Assembly (NCBI RefSeq): GCF_964213995.1
Contig: NW_027590175.1
Coordinates: forward strand, 682,001 to 746,000
Reading direction: 5' to 3'
DNA length: 64,000 bases
Source: Mustelus asterias
Lineage: Eukaryota
In this document: positions 8,648 to 64,000 of the stretch, one piece after another
Layout: each line of letters begins with the position of its first letter
Position numbering within the stretch: the stretch's first letter is position 1
The notes under the pieces: model-generated
What the model was told of the DNA's origin: nothing
Database searches by the model: none
What the model saw: only the letters and a program-made list of their open reading frames with translations
Position numbers and translations under genes: made by a program

Positions 8648-11252
8648 TAGTTTAAACTAGTATGGCAGGGGGGTGAGGATCAAAATATTAGGTCTACAGG
8701 TGTGGAGGCTGGGGACGAGCTTGGGGCTGGGACAAGGCTGGCAAAGAAGAAGAGCACTCTGGGGGAGGACGACCTCACTGGGCCTGGAGGTCTGGAGTGC
8801 TTATACTTCAATGCAAGGAGCGTAGCAGGTAAGACAGACGAACTTGGGGCCTTAATGCGCACGAGGAATGTGGATGTGGTTGCGGTGACAGAGACTTGGT
8901 TGAAAGAGGGACAGGACTGGCAGCTGAATATTCCGGGGTACAAGTGTTTTAGGCGAGACAGAGGAGGGGCCAAAAGAGGTGGGGGAGTAGCGGTATTAGT
9001 TGGAGAGCATATTACAGCGGTGCAGAGGGAGGACAATTCAGAGGGGTCGTGTAACGAGTCACTCTGGGTGGAGCTTAGAAACAGGAAAGGCGCAGTCACT
9101 ATGTTGGGGGTGTACTACAGGCCCCCCAACAGCCCAAGGGAAGTGGAAGAATGGATATGTCAGGAGATACTGGATAGTTGCAGGAAAAATAGGGTTGTTG
9201 TAGTGGGAGACTTCAATTTCCCTGGTATAGACTGGAAATCGCTGAGGGCAGGGACTCTGGATGGGGAGGAATTTGTAAAATGTGTACAGGAGGCTTCGTT
9301 GGAACAATATGTAGACAGTCCGACTAGAGAGGGGGCTATACTGGACCTGGTACTGGGGAATGAGCCCGGTCAGGTCTTCAAAGTTTCGGTAGGGGAACAT
9401 GTGGCAAATAGTGACCACAATTCTGTTAGCTTTAGGATAGTGATGGAAAAGGATGAGTGGTGTCCCAAAGGTAAGGTGTTGGATTGGGGGAAGGCTAACT
9501 TTAGTGGGATCAGGCAGAAATTGGCAGTTCTTGATTGGGAGAGGCTGTTTGAGGGAAAATCCACATCTGGTATGTGGCAGTCTTTTAAGGAACGGTTGTT
9601 AGGGCTACAGGACAAGCATGTGCCTGTAAAAAAGAAGGATAGGAAGGGTAGGATTAGAGAACCGTGGATAACCAGGGAAATTGAGGGACTGGTCAAAAAG
9701 AAAAGAGAGGCGTATGTTAGGTCCAAGCAGCTAAAAACGGAGGGAGCTCTGGAGGAGTACAAAGAAAGTAGGAAAGTACTCAAACGGGGAATTAGAAGAG
9801 CAAAAAGGGGTCACGAAATGTTCTTGGCAGACAGGATTAAGGAGAATCCCAAGGCATTTTATTCATACGTTAGGAACAAAAGGGTTGTTAGGGAAAAAAT
9901 CGGACCTCTCAGGGACAAAAGTGGGGCCTTATGCTTGGAGCCCAAAGAAGTAGGGGAGATCCTAAATAAATACTTTGCGTCGGTATTCACAAAGGAGAGG
10001 GATGTGTTGACTGGGAGTGTCTCGGAGGGGAGTGTTGAACCGTTGGAGAAAATCTCCATTACAAAGGAGGAAGTGTTAGGTTTGTTAGAGAATATAAAGA
10101 CTGACAAATCCCCAGGGCCTGATGGAATCTATCCAAGGCTGCTCAGGGAGACGAGAGGTGAAATTGTTGGGCCTCTGACGCAAATCTTTGTCTCGTCACT
10201 GGACGCAGGTGAGGTCCCAGAGGATTGGAGGATAGCTAATGTGGTCCCGTTATTTAAGAAGGGTTGGAAGGATAACCCGGGTAATTATAGGCCGGTGAGC
10301 TTGACGTCCGTGGTGGGGAAGTTGTTGGAGAAAATTCTTAGAGATAGGATGTATGCGCATTTAGAAAGGAATAAACTCATTAACGATAGTCAGCATGGTT
10401 TTGTGAGAGGGAGGTCATGCCTCACTAACCTGGTGGTGTTTTTTGAAGAAGTGACCAGAATGGTTGACGAAGGAAGGGCCGTGGATGTTGTCTATATGGA
10501 CTTTAGTAAAGCGTTTGACAAAGTCCCTCATGGTAGGCTAGTGAAAAAGGTTGGATCTCATGGGATAAAGGGGGAGGTGGCTAGATGGGTGGAGAACTGG
10601 CTTGGTCATAGAAGACAGAGGGTGGTAGTGGAAGGGTCTTTTTCCGGCTGGAGGCCTGTGACTAGTGGTGTTCCGCAGGGCTCTGTATTGGGACCTCTGC
10701 TGTTTGTGATTTATATAAATGATCTGGAAGAAGGAGTAACTGGGGTGATCAGTAAGTTTGCGGTCGATCATCTTGCTGGTGCCAGTACAGAGCGAAACTG
10801 CGGATAGTTGGGAACCTGTCTCGGGGGCAGGGAATTCAGATGGTGTTCGTAAAGCAGAAGTGGAAATGAATAGGTTTGGGAAGCATTTTCTGACCAGGGC
10901 CAGTGTGATCTCCTGGACTCGTTTCGATCGCCTCAGGGGTTCGGAGAGGAATTTCCCAGATTTTTCTTTCCCCATATTGGCCCTGGGGTTTTCACTCTGG
11001 GTTTTCGCCTCTCCCTGGAGATCACATGGTCTGGAATGGGGGGGTGGGGGTGAGTTAATAGGTTGTGATGAACAAAGCATCGTAGCTGTGAGGGACAGCT
11101 CGGTGGATAGGATATTAGGATGTAGATAGGCTGGAAAATTGGGCGGGGATCCTGGATTCAGGATTCAATCCTGGACCGGGTAGCGGCGCGGGCTTGGAGG
11201 GCCGAAGGGCCTGTTCCTGTGCTGTATTGTTCTTTGTTCTTTGTTCTTGTTC
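8648..11252 (+). mobile_element. Chimeric CR1 element: ORF2 5' part, foreign segment, CR1 3' tail
   Basis: ORF 8702.. encodes APE and RT up to SKFA (~10763), then unrelated sequence, then the same tail as at 15241-15312 (ggccgaagggcctgttcctgtgctgtattgttctttgttc). Confidence 0.85.
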
Positions 11253-20712: not shown

Positions 20713-20720
20713 TATTTAAA
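20713..20720 (+). promoter_or_regulatory. TATA-like box of the VH promoter
   Basis: TATTTAAA in a GC-rich context about 100 bp upstream of the leader ATG. No ATGCAAAT octamer was seen in the preceding ~300 bp, as expected for shark VH promoters. Confidence 0.6.
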
Positions 20721-20811
20721 TGCCGCTCACTGGGACCGGAATCCAACAGTCCGGGAGCTGGTTTGTTCACTGAGTTCCTGACATAACCATTTCCTCCATA
20801 TGACCAGAAGG

Positions 20812-20857
20812 ATGAGGTCGGCGATTTCTCTCAGTTTGTTGCTGGCTTTCTTATCCA
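20812..20857 (+). CDS. IGHV: IgM heavy chain leader exon (MRSAISLSLLLAFLS)
   Basis: ATG at 20812 (an in-frame upstream ATG lies at 20800), hydrophobic signal peptide, phase-1 donor GTGAGT at 20858 splicing in frame to the V exon. Confidence 0.93.
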
Positions 20858-20981: not shown

Positions 20982-21283
20982 GAGTCCAGTCGCAGGTTGT
21001 GTTGACTCAGCCAGAGGTAGCGACCGGGCGTCCCGGAGGCTCCCTGAGACTGACCTGTAAAACCAGTGGGTTCAATCTTGACAGCGACTGGATGAACTGG
21101 ATCCGAAAGATTCCCGGACAGGGGTTGGACTGGCTCCTTGACTACACAAGTTCATCGAGCAACAATTACTCCCCAGGGATTCAGTATCGATTTACAGCGT
21201 CCAAAGACCTTTCAAGTAATACCTTCGCTTTGGACATGACTGGTCTGACGAACGAAGACACCGCCATCTATTACTGTACATAT
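20982..21283 (+). CDS. IGHV: Unrearranged immunoglobulin VH segment ([11 protein letters not shown]...LTCKTSGF...WIRK...[10 protein letters not shown])
   Basis: Acceptor ttttacag at 20981. Open frame with the conserved first Cys, WIR Trp and DTAIYYC motif (ORF 20999..21340). Confidence 0.96.
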
Positions 21284-21322
21284 CCCAGCGATAGGGACCA
21301 GGGCTGCCCCCGGACAAGAACA
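21284..21322 (+). other. VH 23-RSS with defective heptamer (CCCAGCG-23-ACAAGAACA)
   Basis: Heptamer position 21284-21290, exactly 23-nt spacer 21291-21313, nonamer 21314-21322. Confidence 0.85.
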
Positions 21323-21674
21323 GTTCGAGAAGGAATTTAACAACTTCCAACACAACCTGAAATTCAGTACCTCTTGTACATGTAATATTAACTGCAATGA
21401 TCTGAACCAGACAACTAGCTGATTCTTACCAAACTAACACAGCGAAAATGTAACGGTAAAACGTAACAGACAAACATAGAAAACGGGGTTGGACTGTGGC
21501 TGTGGTTATATTTACTATTGACACTTTCAACACTTCCAGACCTGCAAATAATGCTTATTTTAATATTTCTGACTTTGTGATCGATAAACTGCTGCCTAAC
21601 TGATAAATGAGATCAGAAATAACGTTCTATTTGAAGTGAATAGTGAGCGGCAGGACTGAACAGAGAGTGAGTGC

Positions 21675-21753
21675 AGTTTTTGTGCGGGTGTGTGTCACTG
21701 TGATATGTTGGGTCGAACTGGCAGGCACAGCTGTTACCGTCAATACAAAAACC
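21675..21753 (+). other. IGHD: Single DH segment (coding 21703-21725) flanked by 12-RSSs on both sides
   Basis: AGTTTTTGT-12-CACTGTG | ATATGTTGGGTCGAACTGGCAGG | CACAGCT-12-ACAAAAACC. Confidence 0.93.
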
Positions 21754-22070
21754 CCTCTCAGCACTTACTGATTGAGGCTGGATCAGTGTCACTTCTATAA
21801 TCCAACTATAATTTCAGTATAGTACTCTCGATGATCAGCATTGCCCGAATGGCAAGAATTAAAATGCAAACTCGATGATAATTGTTCGATTATCAGTTGT
21901 TGTTTTCAATAACATGTTCATGTGTTACTCTGTGAAATATAAATCATTAGGGTCATTTATGAAGAGCGAAAGGCATCCACAAATACAAATATAATTTTTT
22001 GAAGCTTCATTGATTTACTTGCCTTGTGCTTTGTGAATATTTAAAATAATGGTCTATTGTGTTTAGAGCA

Positions 22071-22109
22071 TGTTAATGTATGGTGCAGCCCAGAGAATGT
22101 AACACAGTG
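22071..22109 (+). other. JH 23-RSS (TGTTAATGT-23-CACAGTG), weak nonamer
   Basis: Heptamer 22103-22109 abuts the J coding end; 23-nt spacer; nonamer 22071-22079 deviates from GGTTTTTGT. Confidence 0.8.
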
Positions 22110-22156
22110 ACACTTCCCATCCTGGGGACAAGGGACCACGGTGACGGTGACTGCAG
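22110..22156 (+). CDS. IGHJ: JH segment (HFPSWGQGTTVTVTA)
   Basis: WGQG motif; phase-1 donor GTAAG at 22157. Confidence 0.95.
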
Positions 22157-31295: not shown

Positions 31296-31595
31296 CGACA
31301 CCGTCTCCGCTCGTTCTCCACAACCTGGTCTCCTCCTGTCAGCAACACAACACCGACGGCACCGTCACCTACGGCTGCTTGGCGATGGACTACTTCCCAG
31401 AAATCACCAGGCTGACCTGGAAGAAAGATGGACAGCCGATCACCACTGGAGTTAAGACTTACCCATCAATGAGAAACACAAAGGGAACCTACACCCTAAG
31501 CAGCCAATTAACCATCACCGAGTCAGAGGGAGCATGCAGCAACATCAACTGTGAGGTTCGACACAGCGGTTCAGATAAGAGCATTGAAATGCAAT
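31296..31595 (+). CDS. IGHM: IgM constant exon Cmu1
   Basis: Acceptor tttcccag. Translates [35 protein letters not shown]...WKKDG...[15 protein letters not shown]; donor GTAAG at 31596; 300 nt. Confidence 0.95.
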
Positions 31596-31802: not shown

Positions 31803-32117
31803 GTCCTCGAGATGACATCGCACCAACCGTTATCCTCACCGTGAGTTCCAGTGAAGAAATCACAAGAAGCAAATTTGCAACCGTTATCTGTTCAATTATC
31901 GATTTCTTTCCAAAGTCAATGACGGTGAAGTGGCTGAAGAATGGACAACCCATGGATTCAGGAATTGTCACCTCTCCCGCCTGGAATGCGAATGGGAACT
32001 TCTCGGCGAGCAGTGGGCTGACAGTCTCCGCTGGAGAATGGTTCAGCAAAGCAGTCTATACCTGCCAGGTCACTCATCAAGGCCTCCTCCAAAGTCGAAA
32101 CATCACTGGATCTCTGG
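31803..32117 (+). CDS. IGHM: IgM constant exon Cmu2
   Basis: [37 protein letters not shown]...WLKNG...YTCQVTHQ...ITGSL; AG at 31801-2, donor GTAAG at 32118. Confidence 0.95.
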
Positions 32118-32795: not shown

Positions 32796-33104
32796 ATTCT
32801 TACCAGAATGCTGATTCCACCTTGACAATACTGCCACCACCAATTGAACAGGTCTTACTGGAGGCTACTGTAACCTTAACCTGTGTCATATCTCATGCTC
32901 CTTATGGACTCAACGTGTCCTGGAGCCAAGACAAGAAGGCTTTGAAATCAGAAATTGCTGAAAAGCCTGGAGAGGATCCTTACAGCGTCGTCAGCAACTT
33001 AAACATCTCAACACAAGCCTGGCTGAGTGGGACTGTGTTTGACTGCATTGCGAACCATGAGGATCTGCCGACACCTTTAAGAAAATCCGTCCACAAGGAA
33101 GAAG
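32796..33104 (+). CDS. IGHM: IgM constant exon Cmu3
   Basis: [43 protein letters not shown]...[22 protein letters not shown]; acceptor tttgcag, donor GTGAGT at 33105. Confidence 0.95.
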
Positions 33105-35145: not shown

Positions 35146-35540
35146 CAGATCCAAATCCGCGGGAACCGTCCGTTTCTGTCCTCATGCCCTCCGCAGAAGA
35201 AGTCTCCGCTCAAAAAATAGTCTCCCTCTCCTGCTTAGTGAGAGGTTTCTCCCCCCGAGAGATCTTCGTCAAGTGGACCTTCAAAGACAAGCCGGTGAAC
35301 CCCGGGAACTACAGTAACACGAAGGTGATGGCGGAGAACGGCAATAGCTCCTTCTTCATGTACAGTCTGTTATCCATTGCAGCGTTGGAGTGGGCCAGCG
35401 GCGCTTCTTACTCCTGTGTGGTGGGACATGAAGCCATCCCCTTGAAGATCATCAACAGAACGGTTGATAAATCCAGCGGTAAACCCAGTTTTGTGAACAT
35501 TTCTCTTGCACTGATGGACACCGTTAATTCCTGTCATTGA
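35146..35540 (+). CDS. IGHM: IgM constant exon Cmu4 plus secretory tailpiece
   Basis: [32 protein letters not shown]...[11 protein letters not shown]...DKSS|[20 protein letters not shown]. Internal donor G|GTAAA at 35478/35479 for TM splicing; the tail has an NIS sequon and a penultimate Cys. Confidence 0.96.
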
Positions 35541-51373: not shown

Positions 51374-51996
51374 GCTGCTGGGGAAGTTTTTCAATGAAAA
51401 TATTTCCATTGCCTTTCAAAGCTGCTCAGACTTCTGCAGTGAAAGGTGAAAATGCCGGAAAAGCTCAGAAAGTCAGACAGCTTGTGTACACAGGAAAACA
51501 AATCTCATATTTTAGCTCCATAATCTCTGATTACCACGGGGAATGGTTCGAAACGTAGGAAGTTTTAAACAAGTGTTATCCAGCAGCATAACAAGAGGGG
51601 AGGCCTCTGGCCGGGTGTAAATCAGGAGAGCTTAAATGAGGGAAACAAAGAATTTTAAAGTAATTACACCACAGAATGGGGCCATTCCTAAGTCCTTTAC
51701 AGGACGCAGTTGTGTTGTGGATGAAGGGGAACCTGTGGATGTAATGTACGTAGATTACATTGGAGCCACAGTGATGAGTTGTTGGGTTTTGAAAATTGAA
51801 AGTTAAACTTAGGAAATAGAATTAGGAGCAGAAGTGGGCAAATTCACCCCTTCGAGCCTGAACCGTCATGCAATCAGTTCATGACTGATCTCTCCCTGTT
51901 CTCAAATCCACCTTCCTATCTGTTCCAATATCCACTCATCACTTTTATTATCAGGAATATATCTGTCTCCTTCTTGAAACCATTTAACAAATAGAT

Positions 51997-53226
51997 AACA
52001 AATAGGTTAGACCAAGGAGAGCCAATGGATGTTATCTATCTTGACTTCCAAAAGGCCTTTGACAAGGTGCCTCACGGGAGACTGCTGAGTAAAATAAGGG
52101 CCCATGGTATTCGAGGCAAGGTACTAACATGGATTGACGATTGGCTGTCAGACAGAAGGCAGAGAGTTGGGATAAAAGGTTCTTTCTCAGAATGGCAACC
52201 GGTGACAAGTGGTGTCCCGCAGGGTTCAGTGTTGGGGCCACAGCTGTTCTCTTTATATATTAACGATCTAGATGACGGGACTGGGAGCATTCTGGCCAAG
52301 TTTGCCGATGATACAAAGATAGGTGGAGGGACAGGTAGTATTGAGGAGGTGGGGAGGCTGCAGAAAGATTTAGACAGTTTAGGAGAGTGGTCCAAGAAGT
52401 GGCTGATGAAATTCAACGTGGGCAAGTGCGAGGTTGTACACTTTGGAAAAAAGAATAGAGGCATGGACTATTTTCTAAACGGTGACAAAATTCATAATGC
52501 TAAAGTGCAAAGGGACTTGGGAGTCCTAGTCCACGATTCTCTAAAGGTAAACTTGCAGGTTGAGTCCGTAATTAAGAAAGCAAATGTAATGTTGTCATTT
52601 ATCTCAAGAGGCTTGGAATACAAAAGCAGGGATGTACTTCTGAGGCTTTATAAAGCACTGGTTAGGCCCCATTTGGAGTACTGTGAGCAATTTTGGGCCC
52701 CACACCTCAGGAAGGACATACTGGCACTGGAGCGGGTCCAGCGGAGATTCACACGGATGATCCCAGGAATGGTAGGCCTGACATACGATGAACGTCTGAG
52801 GATCGTGGGATTATATTCATTGGAGTTTAGGAGGTTGAGGGGAGATCTGATAGAAACTTACAAGATAATGAACGGCTTAGATAGGATGGACGTAGGGAAG
52901 TTGTTTCCATTAACAGGGGAGACTAGGACGCGGGGGCACAGCCTTAGAATAAAAGGGAGTCACTTTAGAACAGAGATGAGGAGAAATTTCTTCAGCCAGA
53001 GAGTGGTGGGTCTGTGGAATTCATTGCCACAGAGGGCTGTGGAGGCCGAGACGTTGAGCGTCTTCAAGACAGAAATTGATAAATTCTTGATTTCTCGAGG
53101 AATTAAGGGCTATGGGGAGAGAGCGGGTAAATGGAGTTGAAATCAACCATGATTGAATGGTGGAGTGGACTCGATGGGCCGAATGGCCTTACTTCCGCTC
53201 CTATGTCTTATGGTCTTATGGTCTTA
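51997..53226 (+). mobile_element. Young 5'-truncated CR1
   Basis: Uninterrupted 371-aa RT/C-terminal ORF 52025..53140; (GGTCTTAT)n tail. Confidence 0.92.
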
Positions 53227-59295: not shown

Positions 59296-62115
59296 CTAAA
59301 CCAATTTCTTTTCGTCCATGAACCTATCTACGGATCTCTTAAACGCCCCCAAACTAGGCGCATTTACTACTGATGCTGGCAGGGCATTCCAATCCCTCAC
59401 CACCCTCTGGGTAAAGAACCTACCCCTGACATCGGTTCTATAACTACCCCCCCTCAATTTAAAGCCATGCCCCCTCGTGCTGGATTTCTCCATCAGAGGA
59501 AAAAGGCTATCACTATCCACCCTATCTAAACCTCTAATCATCTTATATGTTTCAATAAGATCCCCTCTTAGCCGCCGCCTTTCCAGCGAAAACAATCCCA
59601 AATCCCTCAGCCTCTCCTCATAGGATCTCCCCTCCATACCAGGCAACATCCTGGTAAACCTCCTCTGCACCCTCTCCAAAGCCTCCACATCCTTCCTGTA
59701 ATGTGGGGACCAGAACTGCACACAGTACTCCAAGTGCGGCCGCACCAGAGTTGTGTACAGTTGCAACATAACGCTACGACTCCTAAATTCAATCCCCCTA
59801 CCAATAAACGCCAAGACACCATATGCCTTCTTAACAACCTTATCTACTTGATTCCCAACTTTCAGGGATCTATGCACACATACACCTAGATCCCTCTGCT
59901 CCTCCACACTATTCAAAGTCCTCCCGTTAGCCCTATACTCAACACATCTGTTATTCCTACCAAAGTGAATTACCTCACACTTCTCCGCATTAAACTCCAT
60001 CCGCCACCTCTCGGCCCAACTTTGCAACCTGTCTAAGTCTTCCTGCAAACTACGACACCCTTCCTCACTGTCTACCACACCACCGACTTTGGTGTCATCA
60101 GCAAATTTGCTAATCCACCCAACTATACCCTCATCCAGATCATTAATAAATATTACAAACAGCAGTGGCCCCAAAACAGATCCCTGAGGTACACCACTTG
60201 TAACCGCACTCCATGATGAATATTTACTATCAACCACCACCCTCTGTTTCCTATCCGCTAGCCAATTCCTGATCCAATTTCCTAGATCACCCCCAATCCC
60301 ATACATCTGCATTTTCTGCAGAAGCCTACCATGGTGAACCTTATCAAACGCCTTACTAAAATCCATATATACCACGTCCACTGCCTTGCCCCCATCCACC
60401 TCCTTGGTCACTTTCTCAAAAAACTCAATAAGGTTAGTAAGGCACGACCTACCTGCCACAAAACCATGCTGACTATCACCTATCAATTCATTACTCTCCA
60501 AATAACTATAAATCCTATCCCTTATAATTTTTTCCAACATCTTGCCGACAACAGAAGTGAGACTCACCGGTCTATAATTCCCGGGGAAGTCTCTGTTCCC
60601 CTTCTTAAACAATGGGACAACATTCGCTAACCTCCAATCTTCTGGTACTATACCAGAGGCCAACGACGACCTGAAGATCAGAGCCAGAGGCTCTGCAATC
60701 ACTTCTCTTGCCTCCCAGAGAATCCTTGGATAAATCCCATCCGGACCAGGGGATTTATCTATTTTCAGACCCTCCAGAATATCCTGCACATCCTCCTTAT
60801 CAACTGTAATACTGTCTATTCTACTCCCTTGCAACCCAGTGTCCTCCTCAGCTATATTCATGTCCCCTTGCGTGAACACCGAAGAGAAATATTGGTTCAA
60901 TGCTTCACCAATCTCCTCCGGTTCCACACATAACTTCCCTCTGCCATCTATAACTGGCCCTAAACTTGCCCTAACCAACCTTCTGTTCTTGACATACCTA
61001 TAGAACGCCTTAGGATTCTCTTTAACCCTATCCGCCAAAGTCTTCTCATGTCCCCTTTTAGCCCTTCTAAGCTCGCTCTTCAACTCCCTCTTAGCCAATC
61101 TAAAGCTTTCTAGTGCACTACCCGAGTGCTCACGTCTCATCCGAACATAAGCCTCCTTTTTCTTTTTAACCAACAAAGAAACTTTTTTGGTGCACCACGG
61201 TTCCCTAGCCCTACCAATTCCTCCTTGCCTGACAGGGACATACCTATCACAGACTCGCAGTAGCTGCTCCTTGAAAAAACTCCACATGTCGGACGTTCCC
61301 AGTCCCTGTAATCTCCTAGTCCAACCTATGTTTCCTAATTCTCTCCTAATAGCCTCATAATTACCCTTCCCCCAGCTAAAACCACTGGCCCGAGGTTCAT
61401 GCCTATCCCTTTCCATCACTAAGGTGAACGTAACCGAATTGTGGTCACTATCACCAAAATGCACACCAACTTCCAAGTCTAGCACCTGGTCTGGCTCATT
61501 TCCCAGCACCAGATCCAATATAGCCTCACCTCTAGTTGGCCTGTCTACATACTGAGTCAAAAAACCTTCCTGCACGCTTTGAACAAAAACTGACCCCTCT
61601 AACGAGCTAGAGCTATAACAATTCCAGTCAATATTAGTCAAGTTAAAATCCCCCATAACAATTGCCCTATTACTTTCACTCCTAAGCAGGATTGACTCCG
61701 CAATCCTTTCCTCAACCTCTCTAGAACTTTTAGGAGGTCTATAAAAGACTCCCAACAGGGCGACCTCTCCTCTCCTATTTCTAATCTCCGCCCATACTAC
61801 CTCAACAGATAAGTCCTCATCAAACCTCCTCTCTGACACTGTGATACAATCTCTGACCAATAATGCTACCCCTCCCCCTCTTCTACCTCCTTCCCTACTT
61901 CGACTAAAACATTTGAACCCCGGGACCTGCAGCATCCATTCCTGCCCCTGCTCTATCCATGTCTCTGAAATAGCCACAACATCGAAGTCCCAGGTACTGA
62001 TCCACGCTGCAAGTTCACCCACTTTATTGCGAATACTCCTGGCATTGAAGTATACACATTTCAAACCCTGCTCCACCCCACCTCTGCAATGCCGTGCATT
62101 GCAGTCCCCATCCAT
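59296..62115 (-). CDS. CR1 ORF2 (APE endonuclease plus reverse transcriptase)
   Basis: NARS, SETW, GDFN and SDH endonuclease motifs; [17 protein letters not shown] and FADD RT motifs; 939 aa uninterrupted. Confidence 0.95.
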   Translation of the reverse strand: MDGDCNARHCRGGVEQGLKCVYFNARSIRNKVGELAAWISTWDFDVVAISETWIEQGQEWMLQVPGFKCFSRSREGGRRGGGVALLVRDCITVSERRFDEDLSVEVVWAEIRNRRGEVALLGVFYRPPKSSREVEERIAESILLRSESNRAIVMGDFNLTNIDWNCYSSSSLEGSVFVQSVQEGFLTQYVDRPTRGEAILDLVLGNEPDQVLDLEVGVHFGDSDHNSVTFTLVMERDRHEPRASGFSWGKGNYEAIRRELGNIGWTRRLQGLGTSDMWSFFKEQLLRVCDRYVPVRQGGIGRAREPWCTKKVSLLVKKKKEAYVRMRREHSGSALESFRLAKRELKSELRRAKRGHEKTLADRVKENPKAFYRYVKNRRLVRASLGPVIDGRGKLCVEPEEIGEALNQYFSSVFTQGDMNIAEEDTGLQGSRIDSITVDKEDVQDILEGLKIDKSPGPDGIYPRILWEAREVIAEPLALIFRSSLASGIVPEDWRLANVVPLFKKGNRDFPGNYRPVSLTSVVGKMLEKIIRDRIYSYLESNELIGDSQHGFVAGRSCLTNLIEFFEKVTKEVDGGKAVDVVYMDFSKAFDKVHHGRLLQKMQMYGIGGDLGNWIRNWLADRKQRVVVDSKYSSWSAVTSGVPQGSVLGPLLFVIFINDLDEGIVGWISKFADDTKVGGVVDSEEGCRSLQEDLDRLQSWAERWRMEFNAEKCEVIHFGRNNRCVEYRANGRTLNSVEEQRDLGVCVHRSLKVGNQVDKVVKKAYGVLAFIGRGIEFRSRSVMLQLYTTLVRPHLEYCVQFWSPHYRKDVEALERVQRRFTRMLPGMEGRSYEERLRDLGLFSLERRRLRGDLIETYKMIRGLDRVDSDSLFPLMEKSSTRGHGFKLRGGSYRTDVRGRFFTQRVVRDWNALPASVVNAPSLGAFKRSVDRFMDEKKLV

Positions 62116-62167
62116 GCATCCCTCACTTTCAGCCCCACTACTCAGGATCCCTCCCCCCCCCCCCGAA

Positions 62168-63106
62168 TCAGTTTAAACCTCCCTGCATGGCCTTAGCAAA
62201 TTTACCCCCCAGGATATTGGTCCCCTTCTGATTAAGGTGTAGACCATCCTTCTCATAGAGGTCACACCTTCCCCAGTACGAGCCCCAATTGCTTAAGTAC
62301 CTGAACCCCTCCCTCCTGCACCATCCCCTCAGCCATGAATTCAAACCTTCCCTCTCCCTATTCCTCTCTAAACTATCCCGTGGAACAGGCAAGAGTCCAG
62401 AGATAACCACTCTGTCAGTCTTGGCCTTTAGTTTCCACCCCAACTCCATAAATCCCTGCCTAATATCCCCTTCCCCTATCCTCCCTATGTCGTGTGTCCC
62501 CACATGTACAATAACTTGTGGTTTATCTCCCTCCCCCCTAAGAGTCCTGAATACCCTGTCAGACACATCCCGGACCCCAGCCCCTGGTAGGCAACAGACC
62601 AACCCTGAGTCCCTACCTTTAGTTCCGACCCTCCTATCTGTCCCCTTAATTGTGGAGTCCCCAATCACAAGGCCCAGTCTTTTACAGCCCCTAACCACCT
62701 GAGCTTTCTCACTCGGCTCACCCCCAGAGATCTGCTCTCTATGCTCAGTTGATTCCTCCTCAACTGTAGCCTCCAGCACCGAAAACCTATTATGGAGGGG
62801 AACCGCCCCAGGGGATTGTCTTCCCGATTGCTTCTTACCCCTCCTCCTGGCATTGACCCAAGCCTCATTTCTAGGAGTTACTATTTCTCTATAACTCCTA
62901 TCAACTTCCACCTCCGCCTCCCGAATTATGCGGAGTTCCTCTACCTCCCCCTCCAGCTCCTTTACACGCTCCTCCAGAAGCTGCAATCTAATGCACTTCT
63001 TACAACTAAAATCTCCTGAAACACTACTGGATTTCCTCACCACATACATCCCACAGGAGATGCAGCATACTGCCTGAACTGCCATCCCTGAAGCCATTAC
63101 CAGCAA
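62168..63106 (-). CDS. CR1 ORF1 protein (Cys-rich finger, coiled coil, SGNH esterase domain)
   Basis: CISC...CKKC, LEERVKELEGEVEEL, GDS, GTHD and DGLH motifs; 312 aa. Confidence 0.9.
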   Translation of the reverse strand: MLVMASGMAVQAVCCISCGMYVVRKSSSVSGDFSCKKCIRLQLLEERVKELEGEVEELRIIREAEVEVDRSYREIVTPRNEAWVNARRRGKKQSGRQSPGAVPLHNRFSVLEATVEEESTEHREQISGGEPSEKAQVVRGCKRLGLVIGDSTIKGTDRRVGTKGRDSGLVCCLPGAGVRDVSDRVFRTLRGEGDKPQVIVHVGTHDIGRIGEGDIRQGFMELGWKLKAKTDRVVISGLLPVPRDSLERNREREGLNSWLRGWCRREGFRYLSNWGSYWGRCDLYEKDGLHLNQKGTNILGGKFAKAMQGGLN

Positions 63107-64000
63107 GAAAAAAAGAAAACAAAAAACTTCCCCACACTTATAATTAGGTTAGAGGAGGATGGAAGGGTGGGATCCTCTACCAGTGTAGAGGATCGGGTAT
63201 CTCCTCTGCACCAATTTATAGGGCTAGGGGCCCGAGAGAAAAAAAAAACTACTACTGAGGGGGAACCTCCCAGGTAACTGACTTTTAAAGTTAAAATAAA
63301 AACCCTTCCCAGACTCCTTTGCTGCCCACTTCTAGTTTTCACTTTAAACTTGAAAAACTGCTGTTAAAGTAAAGGCCAAAAAAATACACACACTAGCTGA
63401 CTAATTAAATAAATAAACAATTCAATTAATCCAATTAATCTCTTACCAGCACTGCTGCTTTTCAATCACCCCTCTCAGCTTGCTCCAGTGGATCAATGAG
63501 GGGGAACCTCCCAGGTAACTGACTTTTAAAGTTAAAATAAAAACCCTTCCCAGACTCCTTTGCTGCCCACTTCTAGTTGACGAAGGTAAAGATAAGTACA
63601 TAGGGCATATAAAGCAGATATTTTCCAGAGTCAATCTTCCATTAAAAACACAACATTGTGCTTCAGGATAATCCGGATCTTCAAACAGATGAATGTTTTC
63701 AGATGTGTCACTGGCAATGATGTATATATATCTGTAGTTGTTGCAGTGTCCTCTGGCGGCTTTTTTCCCCGGTCGTGTTGTGCTTTTGAATCATGCAACT
63801 CCTGTGGAGCGCATCCTATCTTCCATTAAGAAAGAGAAGATGATAAATGTTCACAAAATTGGTATTTATTTTCACCAATTGCCATCCATTCACAAAGTTG
63901 CATAATTTTGTTCACCAGTTACCAACCATTCATAGACATTAATATATTTACGTTTTAATTTAAGTGATGTGATCGTTGCTGGCCAGGTCAAAATTTGTTG

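Follow-up and report, generated by a model that had tools for sequence, protein, structure and literature searches.

An IgM heavy-chain cluster of Mustelus asterias with a germline-joined D1-D2 segment, an abnormal V coding end, and a broken V recombination signal

The stretch that we analyzed (the window; 64,000 nucleotides, positions 682001 to 746000 of contig NW_027590175.1 of Mustelus asterias) is a shark IgM heavy-chain cluster. Pfam recognizes one V-set and four C1-set domains, and one V, one D, one J, and the C exons all lie in the same orientation, with the segments a few hundred base pairs apart (Table 1). The exons are 68 to 89% identical to Triakis scyllium IgM and 25 to 38% identical to a 787-residue Heptranchias heavy chain (P0023). 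An earlier note, made from the letters of this DNA, had described open exons for the leader, V, J, C1 to C4, the secretory tail, TM1, and TM2 with AG/GT ends, and this description is borne out. Translation meets no stop from J to the secretory tail or from J to TM2, the exon edges are AG/GT, and the C exons, splice sites, and both poly(A) signals are intact. The promoter is 86 to 90% identical to those of most paralogues. The set of signals differs from the canonical one (V23 / D1 12-22 / D2 12-12 / J23). Elsewhere in the window, long open reading frames at 8651 to 10804 (+), 51995 to 53137 (+), and 59299 to 63148 (−) have the look of what we take to be LINE (CR1/L2-type) endonuclease and reverse transcriptase.

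Table 1 Features of the IgM cluster, in positions of the window
Feature	Position	Strand	Basis
TATA-like box, promoter conserved with paralogues	20713-20721	+	Sequence, promoter comparison
Leader exon	20812-20857	+	Open, splice ends
VH exon (V-set), open; terminates YYC-T-Y rather than YYC-A-R-x	20982-21283	+	Pfam, translation
Abnormal V coding end ACATAT	21278-21283	+	Comparison with paralogue V ends
V 23-RSS with broken heptamer CCCAGCG	21284-21322	+	Signal scan, copies, contigs
Lineage-specific cryptic 23-RSS-like candidate site in V-D spacer, CACAGCG-23-AGACAAACA	21438-21476	+	Signal scan
D1-type 5' 12-RSS, canonical, CACAGTG-12-ACAAAAACT	21675-21702	−	Signal scan
Germline-joined D1-D2 segment: 11 nt D1-like + CG + 10 nt D2-like; three open frames	21703-21725	+	
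D2-type 3' 12-RSS, CACAGCT-12-ACAAAAACC	21726-21753	+	Signal scan
J 23-RSS, CACTGTG-23-ACATTAACA, nonamer weakened	22071-22109	−	Signal scan
JH (HFPSWGQGTTVTVTA)	22110-22156	+	Translation
Cmu1	31296-31595	+	Pfam, Triakis comparison
Cmu2	31803-32117	+	Pfam, Triakis comparison
Cmu3, without the N-terminal cysteine of paralogues	32796-33104	+	Translation, alignment
Cmu4 (up to 35478) and secretory tail, final C-H-stop	35146-35540	+	Translation
TM1 exon	43226-43353	+	Translation
TM2 exon (IK-stop)	43484-43492	+	Translation

The 3.68-Gb genome holds four copies of this V: the window's own, one on C88 (99.86% identical to the window over 40 kb), and two on C71 (C71a and C71b; 98 to 99%). A further contig, C971, carries a C region identical to the window's and ends before V. 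No lesion appears in the covered parts of the window, C88, and C971 copies. In C3, canonical paralogues are 90 to 96% identical to Triakis IgM versus 77% for the window copy, which suggests that the window lineage split from the canonical clusters before the species did. The N-terminal cysteine of C3, presumably the position of an inter-heavy-chain bond, is missing in the window (32796 to 32815) and present in 24 of 24 paralogue sequences and 8 of 8 sequences from other species; its loss may mark a specialized subclass or decay. The secretory tail ends in CH, not CQ. Searches of a protein collection with few shark proteins found no protein of the window subfamily, the best matches being 70% (V) and 77% (C3) identical.

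The V signal at 21284 to 21322 reads CCCAGCG, a 23-nt spacer, and ACAAGAACA. The earlier note had reported this heptamer and spacer correctly; the nonamer ACAAGAACA is common to all 30 V loci and is thus the family norm, not a defect. CCC is found in all four copies of the window V subfamily and CACAGCG in all 26 other V loci. A genome-wide scan with the heptamer and spacer pattern gave 56 matches (4 CCC and 52 CAC, one of the CAC matches being a non-Ig sequence that fits by chance), so that CCC makes up 4 of 55 V signals, all within one subfamily. A signal-like match on C23 was rejected as an Ig V signal because it is not Ig. The earlier note had also proposed checking whether position 21285 might belong to an intact CAC. 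Spanning contigs from three of four same-species runs (X1, X3, and X4; three samples from one study) show only the window's letter there; X15 lacks cover at this position, and contigs can drop rare variants. With CCC in four assembly copies of two sub-lineages and in contigs of three samples, an assembly or consensus error can be rejected for this species, barring a rare CAC allele. The J nonamer was likewise said to be weak, which holds (ACATTAACA is three off the consensus versus one for the usual paralogue nonamer, ACAATAACC), and the J heptamer retains CAC.

In mammalian assays, CAC is needed for RAG cleavage (PMC9723617), and changes at heptamer positions 1 to 3 leave too little cleavage for joining to be studied (PMC2875030). 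A T beside the heptamer, as adjoins the window V signal, lowers nicking in a report whose own heptamer test concerned position 3, not 2 (PMC7337519). If shark RAG behaves in the same way, the window V probably cannot rearrange. The cryptic site in the V-D spacer (21438 to 21476) uses the family heptamer CACAGCG, and 0.6% of spacer shuffles yield such a site, a figure calculated post hoc. Rescue through this site was rejected, since read-through from V meets a stop at 21338 and a clean join there would be unproductive.

Most paralogues carry a D1 (12/22) and a D2 (12/12), whereas the window cluster has a single D (12-12). From 5' to 3', it comprises a D1-type 5' signal, 11 nt of D1-like sequence ending in GGGT, the dinucleotide CG, D2-like sequence from which the first 2 nt are absent, and a 3' signal of the D2 type. 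Relative to paralogues, the cluster lacks about 370 bp of the spacer between D1 and D2; the inner signals have gone with the spacer and the outer signals are kept, which gives a V-DD-J layout with D1 fused to D2 at the coding ends. Since all four assembly copies share the same fused D, the join is inherited and not somatic; an X1 contig covering 21676 to 22300 shows no difference from it. Both breakpoints lie at coding ends, with 2 nt trimmed and two G/C bases added, as would be expected of a RAG coding joint, probably made in a germ cell. The identity of the single D as a germline D1-D2 join and the abnormal V end described below were both missed by the earlier note. In nurse shark, type III IgNAR has D1 and D2 joined in the germline. 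The M. asterias genome has many other germline joins, among them V-D-DJ (L005 and L006), VDD-J (L113 and L116), and VDDJ (L126).

The V coding end is also unusual. Six nucleotides (ACATAT) follow the Cys codon, compared with nine in all 39 parsed paralogue contexts, many of which are near-identical copies; two rows could not be parsed, a non-Ig match and a V without YYC. ACATAT is the exact reverse complement of the first 6 nt of D, and its last 4 nt directly repeat the first 4 nt of D, so that the V-D spacer with its bounding signals lies between two direct copies of the 4-bp sequence ATAT. None of 35 paralogue contexts with a D1, again with many near-identical, has a direct repeat of at least 3 nt, and the longest found is 2 nt, once. 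Simulations that placed the same mutation load on paralogue ends produced a direct repeat of at least 4 nt in about 1% of cases and a 6-nt inverted match in 0.007 to 0.02%, values that overstate the case because the patterns were picked after being seen.

The V-D spacer is 74 to 80% identical to those of paralogues, and the D-J spacer (73 to 81%) and J-C intron (72 to 84%) are equally diverged, which argues that the V-D spacer is native. A foreign donor was rejected, as nothing between 74 and 99% identity appeared among the 40 scored of 64 candidates. A stable stem between the two signal ends is unsupported (z = 0.49), a result compatible with transient template switching. Copying from the D flank is in our judgment slightly more likely than not as the origin of the V end; plain mutation is possible at well below even chances, and RAG re-insertion improbable. 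Such copying could have arisen when an abortive RAG join was resealed to its own signal end or when replication switched templates at the two facing heptamers.

A run from another species (X5, organism B) contains a joined form of this gene. Its contig 13 (390 nt, depth 4) matches V at 21021 to 21279 with five differences and runs on into D at 21703 to 21833 with one, four letters fitting either side. V is joined to DD at ATAT, the 3' signal of D is kept, and the frame is open (CTYVGSNWQ). The depth of 4 at the joint, compared with 2.6 to 3.5 for other orthologous pieces of the run, suggests on this one contig that the join is germline. An unjoined J with its signal lies on a separate contig (three differences). 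Over the V stretch organism B differs from the window at five positions, about as many as the C71 copies (four), which is compatible with either CAC or CCC in its ancestor. From organisms C and D come stretches of the D-J spacer and of V that are 98% identical to the window, none spanning the V end; at their low depth X5, X6, and X7 lack cover at 21284 to 21454, and only the X5 joint is used as evidence here. Within M. asterias, no joined V-DD copy was found in the genome (two unrelated one-mismatch matches versus one control match), and no V-DD joint was found in the X1, X3, and X4 contigs. The form in organism B is most simply explained as a later microhomology deletion at the 4-bp repeat. 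Organism B also shows a canonical V-D1 join (X5, depth 3.3), and organism F a D-to-J join (X12, depth 127).

The earlier note had suggested comparing dN/dS of the C exons with paralogues. We calculated dN/dS from pairwise and three-taxon distances, dropping all gapped codons and excluding sequences with cover below 85%, identity below 55%, or a length not divisible by 3. Pairwise values between the window and its paralogues are 0.59 (C1), 0.55 (C2), 0.60 (C3), 0.40 (C4), and 0.81 (V), and those between distant paralogues are 0.52, 0.55, 0.64, 0.12, and 0.74, respectively; for C1 to C3, the window (0.55 to 0.60) thus resembles the paralogues (0.52 to 0.64). The lineage dS is 0.10 to 0.18, and a neutral stem (dS 0.10 to 0.15) would be expected to carry 11 to 16 stops or splice hits. 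This expectation and dN/dS in the purifying range indicate a lineage that was functional for most of its history; by these measures it is old and was under purifying selection.

The period since the heptamer broke is harder to read. The two CCC sub-lineages differ by 1.3% in noncoding sequence overall and by 0.5% from V to C3, which bounds the age of CCC from below only; the change could far predate their split. Between them lie 6.5 synonymous and 7.5 to 8.5 nonsynonymous differences (dN/dS 0.36 to 0.53; P = 0.04 to 0.19 against neutrality, with one of six settings under 0.05). These values weakly suggest that selection continued once the heptamer had broken, and the few changes reveal no detectable difference in recent constraint between V and C. 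The conserved promoter and the intact window, C88, and C971 copies also speak against silencing. Some 0.4 to 1.2 disabling changes are expected per lineage since the copies split, and an intact copy has a probability of 0.3 to 0.7. In C71a a W codon of J has become a stop, and in C71b the C4-to-TM donor is lost; each is a one-base change between copies that agree at 99.91%, and either could reflect an assembly error. The J stop of C71a is not seen in the X1, X3, and X4 contigs, which can drop variants. The earlier note had implied a puzzle in the combination of a dead signal and intact exons. It mostly disappears: with so few disabling changes expected over the short datable span, and one in each of two sisters, intact exons are unsurprising. 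The C71a and C71b copies lie inverted and 5.7 Mb apart, match at 99.91% over 40 kb, and differ at five coding positions, all nonsynonymous or disabling; the pair may represent a recent duplication, haplotype mixing, or consensus error.

On balance, these sequence comparisons favor, with modest confidence, a recently silenced and partly germline-joined IgM cluster that is likely unable to finish V-to-D joining and is starting to decay. RAG in a germ cell would have fused D1 to D2, trimming 2 nt and adding 2 nt. The V end may then have been rewritten from the D flank by one of the two routes named above, and CAC would have become CCC before the copies split (about 1.3% divergence). D-to-J joining should still be possible, whereas V-to-DD joining by RAG should not, and a V-spacer-DJ transcript would stop at 21338. 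In the related species, the spacer may later have been lost at the 4-bp repeat to give a VDD-J gene that would need only D-to-J joining for expression. Between the two outcomes offered by the earlier note, a recent pseudogene fits best, with few changes expected and two sister lesions; the acceptor and donor roles are without positive evidence.

Silencing would not hold if the cluster still made a semi-invariant IgM at a low rate. In this reading, which we consider unlikely, the strong D 12-signal, paired either with the V signal, itself weak, or with the cryptic site (21438), would be cut and the ends mended through the shared ATAT, to leave the fixed in-frame V-DD junction CTYVGSNW, the product seen in organism B DNA. 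That the microhomology join is in open frame and present in organism B speaks for this reading, as do a D-J join at a shared dinucleotide, CA, that would also be in frame (judged by eye), a within-family dN/dS weakly below 1, and an intact promoter. Heptamers that depart from the consensus at positions 4 and 5 release ends to microhomology repair (PMC2875030); the same report, however, found joining unmeasurable with changes at positions 1 to 3, where cleavage is lost, and the adjoining T would reduce nicking further (PMC7337519). The genome moreover holds no joined copy, X1, X3, and X4 contain no joint, and both C71 copies have lesions. The cluster might alternatively be kept as a C-region acceptor for AID-linked intercluster switching, as a DJ acceptor, or as a conversion donor, which also has a low probability. 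Its C exons, splice sites, and both poly(A) signals are intact, its D 5' signal is canonical, its distinct C region (C3 without the cysteine) could supply a different subclass, and the postbreak dN/dS is 0.36 to 0.53; in nurse shark, V regions are reported to be expressed with the C region of another cluster (review, PMC4279169). Against these roles, 96 of 97 partial rearrangements in nurse shark were confined to one cluster, and the remaining one may be an exception (PMC2435157). The sole same-strand upstream V signal found on the contig lies about 298 kb away on a broken V, no V lies within 41 kb upstream, and two broken VH relics lie downstream, before the next cluster (C143, about 753.5 kb and 770.5 kb; L046 to L048). 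V and C are alike in recent constraint as far as the few changes show, and no paralogue V is notably closer to the window V (82 to 85%).

A different kind of proposal, germline RAG transposition, concerns the origin of the V end and is compatible with silencing of the cluster. Here RAG would have joined V and D in a germ cell, the excised signal-ended spacer would have been re-inserted into the fresh palindromic junction with duplication of 4 bp, and CCC would have been acquired later. This history seems to us quite improbable. The 4-bp repeat ATAT exactly flanks the RSS-bounded spacer and falls within the 3- to 5-bp range expected of RAG transposition, the empty site is an 8-bp palindrome centered on the repeat, and the empty-site sequence exists in organism B. 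RAG transposition makes duplications of 5 bp and more rarely of 4 or 3 bp (PMC2193153), RAG prefers hairpin tips in vitro (PMC1618415), and other germline joins occur in the window cluster and the genome. However, the repeat on the right corresponds to the native start of D1 (every paralogue D1 opens with ATA), and the D end would have to be restored exactly, with the spacer in its original orientation. Because the spacer is native, only an immediate local re-insertion is possible; the left heptamer reads CCC, which would require a later mutation; and the join in organism B is simpler as a later microhomology deletion. Signal-end insertions described in mouse thymocytes in vivo lacked duplications (PMC2118463).

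Partly joined clusters have long been known in sharks (PMC2193153, PMC5192425, PMC4279169). In horn shark and skate, IgM clusters that are partly joined in the germline take the forms VD-J, VDD-J, and V-D-DJ (Kokubu et al. 1988, cited in PMC2193153 and PMC5192425). They resemble the window cluster in layout, in a germline join whose coding ends were trimmed and gained bases, and in occurring as many copies beside unjoined clusters. In contrast to these, the window cluster has D1 joined to D2 with V and J free, a dead V signal, and a V end that copies the D start; the form "V DD-J" printed in PMC2193153 may or may not be that of the window cluster. Among the NS4 light-chain genes of nurse shark, near-identical genes likewise exist in joined and in split form, and the split form is the more probable ancestor (Lee et al. 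2000, PMC2193156). Lee et al. looked beside the RSS of the split genes for a 3- to 5-bp duplication and found none, whereas the split gene of the window has one of 4 bp. Nurse shark IgM1gj (PMC4279169, PMC5192425) is also an old and divergent lineage of IgM, with a CDR3 set in advance, towards which the VDD-J gene of organism B would be a step. IgM1gj is fully VDJ joined, without Cmu2, and expressed in pups; the window cluster has four C domains and unjoined V and J. The window V, with an open frame, splice sites, and a noncanonical heptamer, resembles genes of the IMGT "ORF" class, in which an open frame is combined with an unusual heptamer; on this ground the class includes four human IGHD genes (PMC7555362). 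The broken signal alone is an ordinary defect of this class. Unlike in that class, the heptamer defect would silence the whole cluster, as no other V serves its C region. In the literature searched, with partial coverage, we did not find a V-DD-J form with a V end apparently copied from D and a joined orthologue.

A 3- to 5-bp duplication beside the RSS has been proposed as a test for Ig genes split by RAG insertion, and its proposers found none in nurse shark (Lee et al. 2000; Lewis and Wu 2000). The literature that we searched on shark germline joins and RAG transposition, partial in its coverage, yielded no split shark Ig gene with such a duplication. The repeat in the window and the joined orthologue make the direction of change, joined from split or split from joined, testable by sequencing of congeners. 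If re-insertion were true, the cluster would be a germline fossil of a vertebrate RAG transposase and a recent rerun of the event thought to have split antigen-receptor genes. Even under duller mechanisms, it would document stepwise germline remodeling of one cluster (V-D-D-J, V-DD-J, VDD-J), in which a deletion could bypass a dead signal.

Several other clusters deserve mention. D2 and J are joined (V-D-DJ) in the next IgM cluster, 78 kb downstream of the window V (C143:781135; L006 and L043), and on C971 (L005). L116 (C270) and L126 (C71:7.31 Mb) have a near-identical V, one being VDD-J and the other a full VDDJ, with joins that seem to lie at short overlaps; the two form a stepwise series in the germline. 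L148 has a single D1-like 11-mer D with a CAC V signal, an independent V-DD-J form, and L144 has a D1-like 11-mer in place of D2. In L125 (C132:218 kb), D2 is shortened at its 5' side (CCTGGATGG) with its 12-signal intact, perhaps another resealed RAG cut. In L007 (C138, about 217.7 kb), 10 additional nucleotides come after D1, then a CACAGTA-23-ACAATAACC signal and sequence unlike that of a normal cluster; this may be a germline hybrid joint or a rearrangement breakpoint. Finally, a protein labeled as Aeromonas veronii (P0026) is 74% identical to the window Cmu3, and probably reflects host contamination in that record.
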